Shown here in pieces: positions 3,001-12,000 of a DNA stretch of 29,934 nt. Made by a program: the position numbers. Position 1 is the first letter of the stretch. Every line of letters starts with the position of its first letter. The DNA is taken from NCBI GenBank assembly GCA_041611735.1, contig JBFIML010000048.1, positions 1 to 29,934 on the forward strand. The letters are read 5' to 3'. Source of the DNA: Myxococcota bacterium. GTDB lineage: Bacteria; Myxococcota_A; UBA9160; PR03.

Positions 3001-6000
3001 ATGGTCCAGGCGCCGGCGAAGCCGCCCCCGGGCACGAAGAACGAGATCAGCAAGACGACTACGCTGAGCAGGAAGACCTGGTAGGAGAGCCGGTTCAGCC
3101 GCGGGAACACCATGTCGTCGCAGCCGAGCATGAGCGGGATCAGGTAGTTGCCGAAGGCGGCCAGCAGGACCGGCATGGCCACCCAGAAGATCATGATGGC
3201 GCCGTGGTTGGTGATCAGCGCGTTGTACTCGTTGGGCGAGACCACGCCGAACAGCGGCACCTCGATGCCCGGGAAGGCCAGCTGCATGCGGAAGACGTAG
3301 GCGAAGAAGCCGCCGATCAGGCCCATGAAGAGGCCCGTGAACATGTACTGCATGGCGATGATCTTGTGATCGGTCGAGAAGAGGTACTTGCGGACCCAGC
3401 CCTCCTCGTGATGACCGGCTTCTTCGTGACCGTGGGAGGGAACGGTCTCGGCCATGGCTACTCCTCCCGCGCCTGCGGCCTGGCGGCCGCGACGATCGGG
3501 GTCGGGGATTGCCCGGTCTGCTGCTGGATCCAGGCGGCGTGCTGGGCCGGCGTCTCGATGTGAATGCGGGCGCCCATCAGCCCGTGGCCGATGCCGCAGA
3601 TCTCGGCACACTGGATGTCCCACTCGCCGGTCCGGGTCGGCGTGAACCATCCCGTGATCACGCGGCCTGGGATGGCGTCTTGCTTGAGACGGAACACCGG
3701 CACCGAGAAGCTGTGCAGCACGTCCTTCGACTCGAGCTTGTAGTGGTAGAGGGTGTCGACTTCCAAGTGGAGCTCGTTCACCTTGGCGATGTCGTCCGGC
3801 GTGTCGAGGATCCGGTCCGGTCCCGGGTGCACGAACGTCCAGGCCCACTGCTGGCCGATCACCCGCACCGTCTGCTGCGGCTCGGGCAGGGCCTGCTTCA
3901 CGTCGTACCAGACGCGCACCGCGGCCACCACGATGACGACGTCGAAGACCAGCACGGCCAGGTGGGGATAGGTGATCCACTTCTTCTCGCTCTTCTGCTC
4001 CCCGGCGATGTACTGGGCCGGCACCCCCTCCCGCTTGCGGAAACGGAAGATCAGCCAGAAGAAGATCACCTGGCTGGCCACGAACCAGATGCCGACGGAG
4101 ACGAAGATCAGCGTGAAGAGGCCGTCGATGTCCCGGGCGTAGGTCGAGGCGGCCGGGACGAGACCGTCGATCATGGAAGGCAGGCGTTCGAGCATGATGC
4201 TTTCGTCCGTCCCCGGTTGTGGTTACAGGATGAAGAGGAAGACCACGGCGATGAACGTCCCGACGCCCGCCATGCTGATCAGGAAGGTACGCAGCGCCAG
4301 ATCCTCTGCCGAGCGCGCTTTTGCCATCGAACCTCCTACTTCGCCTGGCCGCCGGAAAGGGTCATGATGTAGGCGACGACGTCTTTCATGGCCTGCTCGT
4401 CCTGGAGCGTAGAGGCCATGCCCCGCATGATCTGGGCATTCATGTTGGCGGGGTTCGCGGCCCGCACCCCGGACTTGTAACGCTGGAGCGAGGAAAAGAG
4501 GTACCAGTCGCTGGCGTTGTGCAGGGCCGGCGCCTTCAGGGTCTCGTTGCCGACGCCATCGACGCCGTGGCAGGCGGCGCAGGCGCCGTAGAGGGTGGCG
4601 CCACGCTGCGGATCGCCGCCCTCGACGACGGGTTCCGGAAACACCGGCGGCAGGCCCGCCACGTAGGCGGCCACGGCCCGGATCTCGCCGTCGCTCTTGA
4701 GCGCGCGGGCCATGGGGTGCATCCGAAGCCCGGCCACGTCCTCGGGGTGGATGCCGCGCAGGCCGCTCTTGAAGTTCTCGACCTGGGCGACGACGTACCA
4801 CTCCTGGAGGCCCGCGATCGAAGGAGCCAGCACCAGCGGGTTGCCCTCGCCCCGCGCCCCGTGGCACTGGACGCAGAGCTCGAAGAGCTCGGCGCCGTCC
4901 TGCGCGGCGGCCGGCCCCGCCAGCACGACCGCGGTCAGGGCCAGGGCCGCGAGATGCCTGATCGCCAGCATGGGGTATCCCGTCTGTGGTGTTCCGTCCG
5001 CGGGCTCCACGTCGTCGCCCGCTGGAATGAGTTTCGCCGGCAGGGAGTTAGCCAAAGGCCGCTCGATTCTCAAGACCCGAGGGGGACCTGGGGTCAGCTT
5101 TGCGACCCGGCGAGGCAAAGAGCCTCAGTGCGGGGCCGGATTCACGTGGTAGAGGAGCACGTAGATCAGGACGCCCGTGCCCGAGACGTACATCCAGATG
5201 GGCCAGGCCACCCGGGCGAGGCGACGGTGTGCCTCGTCGCGCCGGGCGAGACCGAGACGGATCAGGAGGATGGCCAGCACCGGGACCGTCGCCGCCAGGG
5301 TCACATGGCTGAAGAGGATGGCCAGGTAGAAGGTCCGCACCCCCCCCTGGCCGTGGAACGGCGTGCTTTCGAAGCCCCGCCAGGCCTTGTGGAGCACGTA
5401 CAGGACCAGGAAGAGGGACGAGGCGGCGAAGGCGCTCCCCATCGCCCGGCGATGGGCGTCCACGTGCCCGCGCCGGATGCGGACCAGGCCGAGGATCAGG
5501 AGCGTCGCTGCCAGGGCGTTCAGGCTGGCGTTCAGCGCCGGCAGGAAGGAGAGATCCACTGCGCTATCCGGACGTCCGGATCCGGAGCCGATCCGTGTCG
5601 GGATCGTAGGTCACCAGCAGGACGCTACCCGGGGCGAGCCTCACCGTCTCCTCCAGGACCAGCGGGGCGCGCAGGCCTTGCGGGGCAGGCCCGTCGGGTT
5701 GCGCCGCGAAGCGCACCGTGAGCCGGTGCTCGCCGGGCGCCACGCGAAGCTCGCGAAAGACGTAGGCCGGCCGCTCGCCGCGCACGCCCGCCGGCTGGAT
5801 GCGCGCGTCCAGGCGCGTCTCGCCGTCCAGCGTCACCTGGAGCAGGAAGGGCAGCGTGCGTCCCTCGCAGATGCGCGGACGCCGCATGTGGGGCGGCAGC
5901 TTGGCCAGCTCCTCGGCGCTGGGCTCCCGGCACTCCTCGATGCGCTCGGGCAGCGCCCGCCAGGAGAGCCGGATGCGCGCGTCGTCCCGGGTCTCCACCG

Positions 6001-9000: not shown

Positions 9001-12000
9001 TTCGGAGCGCTGACCGCCGCCATCATCGCGGCCGTCACGCTCCTGCACGGGGCCATCGTCTACATCCCGACCTGGCTCTGGTCCATGGGCTTGATGAACA
9101 TCGACCCGGAGTTCTACCGGCTCGTCTGGTGGGGGCTCGGACACTCGTCGCAGCAGATCAACGTCGCCGCCATGGTGTCGATCTGGTACCTGCTCGGCGC
9201 GCTCACGGTGGGCGGCGTCGTGCTCAACGAGAAGGTGAGCCGCGGCGCCTTCGCGCTCTACATCCTCTTCATCTCCATGGCCTCGGCGCACCACCTGCTG
9301 GTGGACCCGGGCTTCGGCCCCTCCTGGAAGGTCTGGAACACCAGCTACTTCATGTACATGGCCGTGCTGGCCAGCATGATCCACGGCTTCACGGTGCCCG
9401 CCGGCGTGGAGATGGGCCAGCGGCTGCGGGGCATGACCGCGGGGCTGTTCGGCTGGCTGCGGCACGCGCCCTGGGGCGACCCGGGCTGGAGCGCGCTCGT
9501 CTTCTCGGTGGTGATCTTCGGCTTCGTGGGCGGCATCACCGGCGTAACCTTCGGGACCGAGCAGATCAACATCATCGCCCACAACACGCTGCGCATCCCC
9601 GGCCACTTCCACGCCACGGTGGTGGCGGGCACGGCACTCGCCTTCATGGGGGTCACCTACTACGTGATCCCGCTGATCTTCCGGCGCGAGATCGCGTTCT
9701 TCCGGCTGGCTCAGATCCAGCCCTACCTGTTCGCGATCGGCATGACGATCTTCTCGATCGCCATGACCTTCGCAGGCACCTTCGGAGCGCCGCGGCGACA
9801 CTGGGACATCACGTTCTCCGGGGCCCCCTTCCAGGTGGAGTTCTCGCCGGCCGTGGACCTCGTGATCGGCGTGATGGCCGTGGGCGGCATCGTGGGGATC
9901 GTGGGCGGAGCGATCTACATCCTGGTGACGGTCGTCTCGGTCTTCTTCGGCAGGCGCCTGGGGCCGGAGGAGAGCGGGGTCGGCGCCCACGGCAAGGGGC
10001 TCCCGCTCGGGATCGTGCAGCCCCCGCGCGCGCTCGGGCCCGGCGACGACGACACGACGCTGGCGCGCCACCCGCTCGGACACGTGCCGGGGACGATGGT
10101 GCTGGTGATCGTCTTCCTGGCGGCCTTCGTGGTCTACTACTTCGTCAACTGGAAGCTGCTCTCCGTGGTGTGGAAGGTGGGCTGAGATGGGCGTGGCAGC
10201 CCTCTACGCGCTGTTGGCCGTGACGGCGGGATGGTGGGCCCTCGCCCTTTGGCCCGTGCCCGAGGCCCCGGAGTGGCTGGCCCGCACGCGCTGGGTGTGC
10301 TTCAACGCCGCGCCCAACGGGCTCCCGGACGTCTCCGGCTGGCTGCTGCTCGTCGGGCAACCGATCGGGATGCTGGCGGTCCTCATGGCGGGCTGGGGTC
10401 GCGCGGTCCGCTCCGGACTGCGCGCGCTCGCGGCGCGAAGCGCCGGGCGCACGGCCCTCGGGGCGACGGGCCTGCTGCTGGTGGCGGGCCTCGCCCTGGC
10501 GGGCGTGCGCGTGACCACGGCGGAGCGCAGCGAGGTCTTCGCCCTGGGTCAGGGGGCCCCGCCCCTGGACGGGTGGCCGCGCCTGGACCGCGAGGCCCCG
10601 GCCCTGGGCCTGGTGGACCAGCACGGCGAGCGCCTCGAGCTGGCCCGGCTGCGAGGACGACCGGCCCTGGTCACCTTCGCCTTCGGGCACTGCGGGAGCT
10701 TCTGCCCGGCCCTCGTGCGGCAGACGCTCGAGGCCCAGCAGCAGCTGCGCGCGCGGGCGGCTGCCGGAGAGACGCAGGCCACGCGGATCCCGCGCGTCGT
10801 CATCCTGACCATGGACCCGTGGCGGGACACGCCCTCGCGTCTGCCGCACCTGGCGAAGCACTGGGGCGTGGACGAGGACGGGTTCGTGCTCTCGGGCCAG
10901 GTGGACCAGGTGAACCGCGTGCTCGACGCCTGGGGGGTCGCCCGCAGCCGCGACGCGCAGAGCGGCGAGGTCACCCATCCGCCGCTCGTCTACGTGCTGG
11001 ACGCCTGGGGACGCATCGCCTACGGCGCCACCGGGGACGTGGCCACGATCGTGGCGCTGGTGGAGCGCTCCCAGGGGGACGCTTCGTAGCCGCACCGAGG
11101 CCCCGCAGGCGGCCGCGGCGCGCTGGCGTATCCTGCCGGTGCGCGCCCGGGAGGATCCCCATGAGCTTCGATCGACTGCGTCGCGTGAAGGTGGGTGAGC
11201 TCGAGGTCGCCTTTCGCGAGGCGGGCAGCGGCGAGCCGCTACTGCTCGTGCACGGCTGGCCACTCGCGTCCCTGACCTGGCGCAAGGTGGTGCCCGGCCT
11301 CGAGGCGGGCGCCCGCTGCATCGCCCTGGATCTGCTCGGCGCCGGCGAGAGCCTGGTGGACCCGGACCGCGAGCTCGGCCTGGCGGCCCAGTCCCAGCTC
11401 CTGGCCGGCTTCGTGGATGCCCTCGGCCTGGATCGCGTCACGTTGATCGGCCACGACTCCGGCGGCTCCGTGGCGCGCGGCTTCGCCGTGGCGCACCCGG
11501 GGCGCGTCGGGCGCCTGGTGCTGGCGGACACCGAGGTCCCGGGCCACCGACCTCTGCTCGTCACGCTGATCCAGGGCCTCTCGCGCCTGCCCGGCGCCAC
11601 CGCGCTGCTCGGGAGCGCCTTCCGCAGCAGGACCCTGGCGCGCAGCCCCCTGGGCCTGCGCTCCTGCTTCGCGAACCTCAACGCCTTCGACTTCGACGAG
11701 TTCTTCGCCAACTTGATCGCCCCGAACGCACGCGAGCAGGCGCTCGCGTGCAATCGCAAGTTCATGCTGGACTTCGACTTCGGCGAGGTGGACGCCGTGG
11801 GCCAGCGATACGACGCGCTGCGCATGCCGAAGTGCCTGATCTGGGGCGAGCAGGATCGCTTCTTCCCGCTGGCCCAGGGTCGCCGGCTCGCCGGCATGCT
11901 GCCCGAGCCGACGCGCTTCGAGTCGGTGCCCGGGGCGGGCCTCTTCGTGCACGAGGAGCAGCCCGACGCGTGGGTCCGCATCGTACGCTCCTTCCTGGCG

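Follow-up and report, generated by a model that had tools for sequence, protein, structure and literature searches.

A cytochrome b-Fe-S protein and its beta-sandwich partner as a possible electron-input module of the nitric oxide reductase eNOR

Gene content of the eNOR locus

In a 29,934-nucleotide stretch of a Myxococcota genome (hereafter the window), the genes of the NO reductase eNOR adjoin those of a cytochrome b-Fe-S fusion protein and of p179, a protein with a single membrane helix. The most likely reading of the six genes listed below is that they form one functional unit; our best explanation, in which our confidence is evenly divided, is that the fusion protein and p179 dock on eNOR as a transmembrane module dedicated to electron input.

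5564-6103, minus strand: p179, no Pfam match at E 0.05
6073-7641, minus strand: cytochrome b-Fe-S fusion protein, 522 aa, identified by Pfam
7663-7872, plus strand: p69, small single-helix protein, identified by open reading frame and hydropathy
7892-8464, plus strand: eNOR subunit II, weak COX2 match (E 5e-4), below the Pfam cut-off
8461-10185, plus strand: eNOR subunit I, COX1 match (E 3.6e-54)
10187-11089, plus strand: Sco/SenC copper chaperone, PF02630 match (E 1.2e-19)

The six genes were found where a preliminary description of this DNA had placed them, and its count of only two heme-copper oxidoreductase subunit I genes in the genome was the same here. The 179 aa that it gave for p179 correspond to the frame at 5564-6103, which is present, but the gene callers begin the protein at a GTG at 6076 (170 aa), a start that yields a GTGA overlap with the stop of the fusion gene. 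The first gene of the eNOR operon, p69, encodes 62-72 aa depending on the start chosen, and a Pfam search with it gave no match. Three membrane segments are predicted by hydropathy at the N-terminus of Sco.

Subunit II of eNOR comprises one membrane helix and a cupredoxin domain in which the CuA motif is complete and its ligands (H126, C161, C165, H169 and M172) were invariant in 39/39 sequences. Subunit I is a heme-copper oxidoreductase in which GHSSQQ (H-x3-Q) was invariant in all 39 subunit I sequences, and in an alignment against the A-family subunit I encoded in the same window the Gln falls where that oxidase has its cross-linked Tyr (HPEVY). The eNOR of R. marinus has been purified, and the account in PMC11214002 describes activity supported by ascorbate/TMPD, which implies that turnover in vitro needs no tightly bound partner and so counts against a docked input module.

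The cytochrome b-Fe-S fusion protein

The fusion protein runs from a six-helix dihaem cytochrome b of the bc1/b6 type through two [4Fe-4S] ferredoxin motifs to an MvhD/FlpD-type domain with four Cys (Pfam Cytochrome_B, E 1.5e-13; Fer4 families; FlpD/MvhD, E 1.8e-8), the helices being counted from hydropathy plus the His-bearing helix B. Among PDB sequences its best match was cytochrome b6 (E 3e-21), with further matches to the HdrA ferredoxin domain (E 1.4e-11) and to MvhD chains (E 3.5e-6). Four His (H86, H100, H187 and H201), eight ferredoxin Cys and C389, C412, C437 and C442 were invariant in 25 sequences, the same numbers of His and Cys as reported before, and the homologues numbered 2,379 (previously 2,377), with an identical architecture in all 120 listed, as earlier. 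Helices B and D carry the four haem-ligand His, spaced as in bc1/b6f cytochrome b, from which the protein differs in having six rather than seven or eight helices and in its fused N-side Fe-S domains; the module also lacks the Rieske protein and the cytochrome c1 or f of those complexes. The terminal domain resembles the MvhD of Mvh-Hdr complexes, and all four of its Cys are kept within the clade of the window; unlike MvhD, however, it ends a bacterial membrane cytochrome, it is the sole PF02662 match in the genome, and no hydrogenase or heterodisulfide reductase was found near the locus.

The membrane domain superposes on the whole of bc1 cytochrome b (about 300 columns, E 1.4e-6), and a conserved D-x-[FW]-Y motif with an invariant D251 precedes helix F, at what we take to be the position of PEWY in bc1. 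These features, as well as the standing of the fusion protein as the only PF00033 match in the genome, would suit a Rieske-less bifurcating quinol oxidase, in which quinol would be oxidised on the P-side, one electron passing to CuA and the other via the b haems to the Fe-S/MvhD end, there to reduce a low-potential acceptor. Such a scheme would generalise a speculation in the Ferrigenium preprint (10.64898/2026.01.22.701106), whose section on these genes describes a paralogue with extra FAD- and NADH-binding domains. We nevertheless consider it unlikely: neither a Rieske protein nor any other cofactor of high potential on the P-side is present in the module; electrons would have to reach ferredoxin-type clusters against the membrane potential, which is demanding; and the carriers appear to be mostly heterotrophic Myxococcota and Gemmatimonadota that do not obviously need reverse electron flow.

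Synteny and co-inheritance

Conservation of the module in both search directions, as previously claimed, was borne out and proved wider, extending over three clades with three kinds of gene order. Around the fusion gene at 80 genome loci, the assessable neighbours were p179 (72/72), p69 (73/74, upstream of eNOR II), eNOR II (67/67), eNOR I (58/58) and Sco (50/50, after eNOR I). Searches from eNOR I placed the fusion gene at most 2 kb away on the same contig in 41 of the 43 other genomes with a match among 401 sampled from the window's phylum, and adjoining in 56/59 within a 251-genome sample of Gemmatimonadota. At 80 metagenome loci (proteobacterial-type clade), eNOR I was accompanied, where assessable, by the fusion gene in 29/29 and p179 in 22/22 cases, p69 lay upstream of eNOR II in 61/62, and Sco followed eNOR I in 37/37. 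The carriers comprise Myxococcota-type genomes, Gemmatimonadota, an alphaproteobacterial plasmid and metagenomes; a co-directional operon version, in the order p69, II, I, (cyoE), Sco, fusion gene, p179, is carried in the annotation of a Defluviimonas plasmid. A hemerythrin-family gene was present after p179 at 14 of 21 assessable metagenome loci.

Identity to the window's proteins was correlated between eNOR I and the fusion protein (Spearman 0.81 over 93 loci from related genomes that are not independent). The fusion protein diverges faster than the catalytic subunits, with a median identity of 57% versus 75% for eNOR I, which counts against an electron-input module, as does the finding that eNOR can occur without these partners. 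In the latter case (genome G594), the eNOR operon contains p69 and subunit II together with a subunit I whose motif is GHGTQQ; Sco, the fusion gene and p179 are all absent within about 9 kb of it, and no match to the fusion protein at E 1e-40 was found in the genome. A decayed locus in another genome (G530) retains Sco fragments, a fragment of the fusion gene and p179, and eNOR is absent.

p179 and its joining to the cytochrome b protein

The AF2 model of p179 (pLDDT 93.3) has an N-terminal membrane helix (residues 8-30) followed by strands that form a beta-sandwich, for which structure searches returned generic beta-sandwich matches only (best Z 8.4). No redox cofactor was predicted for p179, a point against the input-module reading. 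The family numbered 1,454 representatives, close to the earlier count of 1,305, and p179 was again without a Pfam match at the threshold given above. Its conserved core is P-x-H-M-R (residues 70-74), accompanied by the pair Cys58/Cys79. The Cys-His-Met-Cys set described as invariant is so in the nearest clade (39/39), but family-wide the His is replaced by Asn in 3/58 and the Met by Leu in 2/58 sequences, and the Cys pair is missing from 9/45 forms fused to the cytochrome b protein, of which 44/45 keep the His and 45/45 the Met. Given the pairwise loss of the Cys and the occasional Asn, the proposal that these four residues form a metal site is not supported as it was put. The joint retention or loss of both Cys suggests instead that they form a disulfide.

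One clade has p179 as the C-terminal domain of the cytochrome b protein, both in a single open frame (6/6 loci). This joining had been described from 2 loci, but it is not rare: with a fused query the best 120 of 764 matches were all 670-781 aa long. Fusion this frequent shows that p179 and the cytochrome b protein work together. In the fused form, hydropathy indicates a seventh helix (residues 544-562), which would place the beta-sandwich on the side of the membrane opposite the Fe-S domains. In this clade one of the four MvhD-type Cys varies, leaving three invariant, an observation that tells against the input-module reading.

The fused clade also bears on whether p179 might be a structural 'scaffold' of eNOR alone, the cytochrome b-Fe-S protein being co-regulated for a separate task such as quinone-linked redox sensing or NO-stress protection. 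The hemerythrin-family gene that often follows p179 would fit such a role; however, a whole clade has the two proteins covalently joined, and in the phylum and Gemmatimonadota samples searched strong matches to the fusion protein lay either next to eNOR or at the end of a contig and nowhere else, and we regard this explanation as very improbable.

Predicted docking on CuA

Complex prediction with eNOR I, eNOR II and p179 gave a score of 0.62, the model's own confidence, against 0.00 for the best of three controls; this mark is reached by 116/157 solved complexes and 2/215 mismatched pairs, counts that are only roughly valid here, since our own alignments and three chains differ from the tool's calibration. 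At least 90% of contacts agreed among runs, and partner pLDDT was at least 78. The predicted interface comprises residues 70-75 and 105-112 of p179, residues 165-168 (the CuA loop), 100 and 124 of subunit II, and residues 50-61, 126-127, 135-137, 451 and 453 of subunit I. The p179 residues involved are its best conserved (H, M, G106, D110 and R111), and residues 50-61 of subunit I cover an invariant eNOR loop. The docking lends indirect support to the preliminary view of the two extra proteins as a dedicated partner of eNOR, a reading that is partly supported overall.

The main alternative is a maturation or maintenance factor, which we judge possible, if doubtful. A wire of Fe-S clusters and two b haems would then export cytoplasmic reducing power, with which p179 and Sco would load or repair the CuA site by reducing Cu(II) or the cysteines of CuA or Sco, with CcoG, the cupric reductase of cbb3, as a potential analogue. 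The predicted contact falls on the CuA ligand loop itself, and His and Met are suited to Cu(I) binding. In co-directional operons, moreover, the fusion gene and p179 are grouped with cofactor-biogenesis genes, downstream of cyoE and Sco in the usual position of assembly factors, which counts against electron input, and Sco, the fusion gene and p179 are jointly missing in G594 and jointly retained in the G530 remnant. CcoG (FixG), as portrayed in PMC7558416, is likewise encoded beside heme-copper (cbb3) structural genes, acts as cupric reductase and assembly factor with a donor given as unknown, and sits in the membrane, where it carries two [4Fe-4S] clusters and a periplasmic Ig-like C-terminal domain of unknown function. 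CcoG has neither b haems nor an MvhD domain, however. Several points speak against a maturation factor: a comparison of p179 with the profile of 12 FixG_C domains showed no similarity (hhalign probability 0.5%), the subunit I loops in the predicted interface imply a partner that is the assembled I-II pair rather than free subunit II, no set of at least three candidate metal ligands is conserved across the p179 family, and five redox centres would be costly for an assembly factor.

A possible private electron supply for eNOR

For an electron-input module, a close parallel may be NosR, an accessory protein of N2O reductase (NosZ) that the account in PMC7660919 describes as required for whole-cell activity and as a proposed electron donor. 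NosR as presented there is likewise a system-specific membrane protein of a CuA-bearing denitrification enzyme, with two [4Fe-4S] clusters on the cytoplasmic side and a periplasmic soluble domain. The periplasmic domain of NosR, however, carries FMN and the protein has no haems, whereas the eNOR module has a dihaem bc1/b6-type cytochrome b, an added MvhD-type domain and a cofactor-less beta-sandwich as its periplasmic part. In Ferrigenium straubiae, the eNOR operon includes cytochrome b-[Fe-S] genes, heme o synthase, sco1 and a 'scaffold protein', and eNOR I, eNOR II and the products of both cytochrome b-[Fe-S] genes were found in the proteome under denitrifying conditions (10.64898/2026.01.22.701106), an experimental hint in favour of the input-module reading. 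The section concerned speculates on a supercomplex and treats the two genes, one with FAD- and NADH-binding domains, as 'rather unusual' Ferrigenium markers; it notes cytochrome b-[Fe-S] genes in Ferrigenium only, whereas nearly all the eNOR operons sampled here, from several phyla, have the fusion protein and p179.

In the electron-input reading, eNOR (p69, CuA subunit II and H-x3-Q subunit I) is inherited together with Sco and with a membrane redox protein in two parts. One part would be the dihaem cytochrome b, with its two [4Fe-4S] motifs and MvhD-type C-terminal domain probably in the cytoplasm; the second would be p179, whose helix would re-cross the membrane and leave the disulfide-stapled beta-sandwich in the periplasm. 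The P-x-H-M-R loop is predicted to dock at the I/II seam, against the CuA loop of subunit II, and this would keep the cytochrome b beside the electron entry of eNOR. The Fe-S clusters and two b haems could then form a trans-membrane wire, probably supplying CuA with electrons for NO reduction; their source would be a cytoplasmic donor at the MvhD end, quinol oxidised at the cytochrome b, or the two together. The module would thereby play for eNOR the role supposed for NosR in N2O reduction. The co-travel of these genes across several bacterial phyla points to a private electron supply for eNOR, an enzyme whose product, N2O, is a greenhouse gas.

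Gene content of the module and identity of the enzyme

Two divergent gene sets occupy positions 5564-11089 of the window: a cytochrome b-iron-sulfur fusion gene with the p179 gene on one strand, and an eNOR operon including a Sco gene on the other.

Genes of the eNOR module in the window
5564-6103, minus strand: p179, overlapping the fusion gene; no Pfam match at E 0.05
6073-7641, minus strand: fusion protein, 522 aa; cytochrome b (PF00033, E 1.5e-13), ferredoxin-type 4Fe-4S motifs and FlpD/MvhD domain (PF02662, E 1.8e-8)
ending at 7872, plus strand: small single-helix protein
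7892-8464, plus strand: eNOR subunit II, a 190-aa cupredoxin; weak Pfam COX2 match (E 5e-4)
8461-10185, plus strand: eNOR subunit I, a 574-aa heme-copper subunit I (COX1, E 3.6e-54)
10187-11089, plus strand: Sco protein

Gene callers place the p179 start at GTG 6076; the protein then has 170 aa, and its start codon overlaps the stop of the fusion gene in GTGA. The gap between the divergent fusion and small-protein genes (window 7642-7683) is only about 12-42 nt, compared with a median of 581 nt between matches in other genome loci. Sco proteins typically have one membrane segment; that of the window is long (300 aa), with three predicted membrane segments ahead of the Sco domain, and the group-2 Sco has 368 aa.

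In an alignment with the A-family oxidase that the window also encodes, subunit I carries GHSSQQ at the site of GHPEVY; the cross-linked tyrosine of the active site is absent and a glutamine stands at His+4 (H-x3-Q). This motif is invariant in 39/39 relatives of subunit I, and the glutamine is the signature by which eNOR is recognised in the legend to Figure A7 of PMC8756737. The secondary subunit bears CuA, with H126, C161, C165, H169 and M172 invariant in all 39 subunit II sequences. The genome (95% complete) holds only two heme-copper subunit I genes, both within the window. In the sections of PMC11214002 cited here, NO reductase activity and heme As in both haem sites are established only for the R. 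marinus enzyme.

Conservation of the neighbourhood

Whether the search starts from the fusion or from subunit I, and through three gene orders, the association of these genes exceeds chance, which bears out and widens the earlier observation of a conserved module. Among 366 genomes with a relative of the fusion protein (one genome per species), the best 80 loci, chiefly from Gemmatimonadota and Myxococcota, had p179 downstream in 72/72 cases with adequate flank, the small protein in 73/74, subunit II in 67/67, subunit I in 58/58 and Sco in 50/50. In the reverse direction, subunit I was matched in 44 genomes of a 401-genome sample of the window's phylum, and a strong fusion match lay within 2 kb on the same contig in 41 of the 43 others; of the remaining two, one has the fusion at a contig end elsewhere and one holds only a 63-residue eNOR fragment. 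Across 251 Gemmatimonadota, subunit I and the fusion were each found in 59 genomes, together in 58 and adjacent in 56, with two assemblies carrying them on separate contigs. A third search, using subunit I from an alphaproteobacterial plasmid, gave 80 metagenome loci in which, where assessable, subunit II was present in 70/70, the small protein in 61/62, Sco in 37/37, the fusion in 29/29, p179 in 22/22 and heme o synthase in 30/40.

A complete co-directional operon is annotated on a Defluviimonas plasmid in the order hypothetical, hypothetical, 'cbb3-type subunit I', cyoE, SCO, 'cytochrome b N-terminal domain-containing protein', hypothetical, hemerythrin. The so-called cbb3-type subunit actually reads WWGMGHSSQQ, and the hypothetical protein encoded after the cytochrome b gene is 30% identical to p179. 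The hemerythrin-family gene follows p179 on this plasmid (L090:14110-14514, plus strand) and in 14/21 assessable metagenome loci of proteobacterial type (L096-L166), and lies upstream instead in some other loci; possible roles include O2 or NO binding, or Fe-S cluster repair.

Within the window's clade (loci L004-L083), subunit I is 67-92% identical across genomes labelled Myxococcota, Gemmatimonadota, Vicinamibacterales and 'Spirochaetales', and such identity between differently labelled phyla suggests that the whole module moves between them. Co-directional operons of a second clade begin with an extra 475-aa paralogue of heme-copper subunit I (COX1, E 1.9e-12; L085:14659-16086, minus strand), which has APH against the AHH of eNOR subunit I and thus lacks one metal-ligand histidine; a 225-aa COX1-like fragment follows the fused gene at L085:7599-8276 (minus strand).

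Two loci depart from this pattern. One genome (G594; L091, C3:19000-38500) encodes a divergent subunit I, with 46% identity and GHGTQQ, beside the small protein and subunit II, among neighbours without Pfam matches; Sco, the fusion and p179 are absent nearby, and the genome has no fusion match. eNOR can therefore exist without the module. At the other (G530; L092, C1:2058000-2077000) there are no eNOR genes: Sco is broken by frameshifts into three pieces, the fusion is reduced to its C-terminal third, and p179 appears intact. This looks like decay following loss of the enzyme.

Downstream of p179 in the window, and likewise on the minus strand, lies a caa3-type oxidase cluster (152-5559).

Genes of the caa3-type cluster
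5125-5559, minus strand: DUF420/CtaM, 4 nt beyond the p179 stop
4336-5118, minus strand: dihaem cytochrome c
3458-4195, minus strand: COX2
1761 to about 3480, minus strand: COX1
152-760, minus strand: COX3

A general link of the module to these genes was rejected, since DUF420 and the dihaem cytochrome c occur in 0/80 genome loci. The preliminary description had likewise reported the caa3 genes missing beside the module elsewhere; outside that set of 80, DUF420 lies nearby in a few loci.

The cytochrome b-iron-sulfur protein

Four histidines, eight ferredoxin-type cysteines and four further cysteines are invariant in 25 homologues of the fusion protein. Hydropathy and the histidine-bearing helix B indicate six helices, and the pairs H86/H100 and H187/H201, the predicted ligands of two b haems in a four-helix bundle, are invariant in the 25 sequences and in five distant members. 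Solved structures matched were cytochrome b6 (E 3e-21), the HdrA ferredoxin domain (E 1.4e-11) and MvhD (E 3.5e-6), and about 300 columns of the membrane part can be superposed on bc1 cytochrome b. The C-terminal domain belongs to the MvhD/FlpD type (PF02662, E 1.8e-8), with C389, C412, C437 and C442, the predicted [2Fe-2S] ligands, invariant in the 25 sequences. Only three of these four cysteines are invariant in 45 proteins of a clade in which p179 is fused to this protein; one such protein (P0326; alignment A13, residues about 465-475) has no cysteine at the position of C442, so the ligands of the terminal cluster may differ in this clade.

A D-x-[FW]-Y motif, a putative counterpart of the Qo-site PEWY, stands at the position expected for it in the 25 sequences and the five distant members. 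The module contains no Rieske gene, and the single PF00355 match of the genome is on another contig (43). The fusion is the sole match of the genome to PF00033 and to PF02662, and as the only PF00033 cytochrome b in a 95%-complete genome it leaves no canonical bc1 complex in view. Two NrfD-family genes (contigs 90 and 51) could be part of an alternative complex III. A NosZ gene is present on contig 29, and a search of the genome for NirS found none. A role for the fusion as stand-in heme A synthase is unnecessary given the CtaA gene on contig 2.

p179: fusion to cytochrome b, fold and conserved residues

A single open frame encodes both p179 and the cytochrome b protein in all six loci retrieved from the second clade of the window's phylum, for example as a 704-aa protein with all domains present. 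This protein had 764 matches as a query, the best 120 of which are all 670-781 aa long with at least 93% query coverage and include sequences from Fodinibius halophilus, Persicimonas, Bradymonadaceae and Verrucomicrobia. The earlier mention of fusion in two loci thus understated a common form. p179 is a separate gene in 76/76 loci of the window's clade and in 25/27 loci of proteobacterial type. Together, p179 and the cytochrome b protein make up a single unit.

The fused protein has a seventh helix (residues 544-562) after the Fe-S/MvhD part, which, given the usual N-in topology of cytochrome b, would place the Fe-S domains in the cytoplasm and the p179 beta-sandwich in the periplasm. AlphaFold2 models were confident for p179 (pLDDT 93.3) and for the fused protein (pLDDT 89.7, pTM 0.86). 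In its model p179 has a generic beta-sandwich fold, as have all its matches in VIA-align wide, the best being the luminal domain of the lysosomal acetyltransferase HGSNAT (Z 8.4, rmsd 3.4, 95 aligned). Foldseek of the model against the PDB returned nothing at E 0.001 or better. Neither fold comparison pointed to a function, and the ESM Atlas clusters nearest to p179 are all 'hypothetical'. Cupredoxins and the copper chaperones Sco and PCuAC did not appear among the fold matches, an absence that does not rule such a family out. Homology to the Ig-like domain of CcoG/FixG (PF11614) was rejected (hhalign probability 0.5%, 58 p179 sequences against 12 FixG_C).

The preliminary description had called C58, H72, M73 and C79 invariant and inferred a metal site in p179. 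They are invariant among the 39 nearest relatives, and not family-wide: in 58 free-standing homologues the histidine is replaced by asparagine in three and the methionine by leucine in two, and in 45 fused forms the cysteine pair is complete in 36 and wholly absent in nine, with a single cysteine in none. The constant core is P-x-H-M-R (in fused forms His 44/45, Met 45/45). Because the cysteines are kept or lost as a pair, their pattern fits a structural disulfide closing a loop between two strands, as expected in the periplasm, and misfits obligatory metal ligands. An obligatory Cys-His-Met-Cys metal site was therefore rejected on conservation in both sets; the proposed partnership with eNOR, in contrast, is well founded.

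Predicted docking on eNOR

One complex was predicted, of subunit I, subunit II and p179, each with a 39-row alignment drawn from the same loci. Its score was 0.62, whereas no control among three rose above 0.00; the score mark was attained by 116/157 solved complexes and 2/215 mismatched pairs, counts that are a rough guide here because our own alignments and three chains were used. Three runs share at least 90% of contacts, with partner pLDDT of at least 78. As p179 has no known relative of solved structure, the predictor is unlikely to have reached the mark by reproducing a complex it was trained on. The predicted p179 interface comprises the P-x-H-M-R loop (residues 70-75) and residues 105-112, among them the conserved G106, D110 and R111. 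On subunit II the predicted contacts are residues 100, 124 and 165-168, the last being the stretch between the CuA ligands C165 and H169; on subunit I they are the periplasmic loops 50-61, 126-127, 135-137, 451 and 453, some residues of which are eNOR-invariant. The best conserved surface of p179 is thus predicted to sit on the electron-entry site of eNOR, a docking that represents model confidence and not measurement.

Possible roles of the module

Taken together, the facts fit a dedicated transmembrane redox module for eNOR. We put the chances as evenly balanced that it delivers electrons to the enzyme for turnover. The chain would consist of the MvhD domain, of [2Fe-2S] type and in the cytoplasm, followed by two [4Fe-4S] clusters and, across the membrane, the two b haems, with p179 as a periplasmic adaptor clamping the whole onto CuA. 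Electrons would come from a reductant in the cytoplasm, at the MvhD end, from quinol at the cytochrome b, or from both. The nearest functional precedent is NosR, a membrane protein that, in the cited part of PMC7660919, bears [4Fe-4S] clusters on the cytoplasmic side and a domain in the periplasm; whole cells need it to reduce N2O, and it is proposed there to donate electrons to NosZ.

As the main alternative, the pair might act with Sco in maturation or maintenance of the enzyme, after the model of CcoG, the cupric reductase of cbb3 oxidases (as treated in part of PMC7558416). Its placement after cyoE and Sco in operons, and its loss or retention along with Sco, would agree with such a role, which we rate as less likely than electron delivery. 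Against it, the predicted interface is with the assembled I-II pair, and p179 has no detectable kinship to the CcoG Ig-like domain.

The boldest reading, and in our judgement a quite improbable one, generalises a speculation in part of the Ferrigenium preprint (10.64898/2026.01.22.701106): a Rieske-less bifurcating quinol oxidase in supercomplex with eNOR. Here p179, by holding cytochrome b against CuA, would take the place of the Rieske head as well as of soluble cytochrome c. One quinol electron would go to NO reduction (+1.18 V); the other would be driven along the b haems as far as the [4Fe-4S]/MvhD end in the cytoplasm and generate low-potential reductant there, such that NO respiration would drive reduction of ferredoxin or NAD(P)+.

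Relation to previous work and significance

In the literature searched, a cytochrome b-[Fe-S] gene was tied to eNOR in the Ferrigenium preprint only. The section cited (10.64898/2026.01.22.701106), on F. straubiae, regards two such genes as 'rather unusual' and as Ferrigenium markers, speculates on a supercomplex and reports all four proteins, eNOR I, eNOR II and the two cytochrome b-[Fe-S] proteins, in a proteome; its 'scaffold protein' may be p179. For eNOR operons, the cited sections of Murali et al. (2024; PMC11214002) mention CtaA homologues alone, and the terms 'cytochrome b', 'ferredoxin', 'scaffold' and 'operon' are all absent from six datasets of that paper. The bare idea of a link between cytochrome b-[Fe-S] proteins and eNOR is thus already in print; since only that preprint was found to connect the two, the general cross-phylum association, the p179 fusion and the predicted CuA docking appear to be new.

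The same sections of PMC11214002 describe eNOR as a source of N2O that is extremely common in nature. With its cytochrome b, its three Fe-S clusters and a new domain in the periplasm that is predicted to lie on CuA, this conserved and apparently obligatory partner is a concrete candidate for the missing electron-input or maintenance system. Two large families without annotation, of at least 2,379 and at least 1,454 database clusters, gain a function by association; they are currently labelled 'ferredoxin', 'hydrogenase iron-sulfur subunit' or 'hypothetical'. The pair also offers a marker by which eNOR operons can be recognised in genomes, where misannotation of them is frequent, as with the Defluviimonas subunit I labelled 'cbb3-type'. 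The bifurcating variant, if true, would be a new mode of energy conservation from NO.
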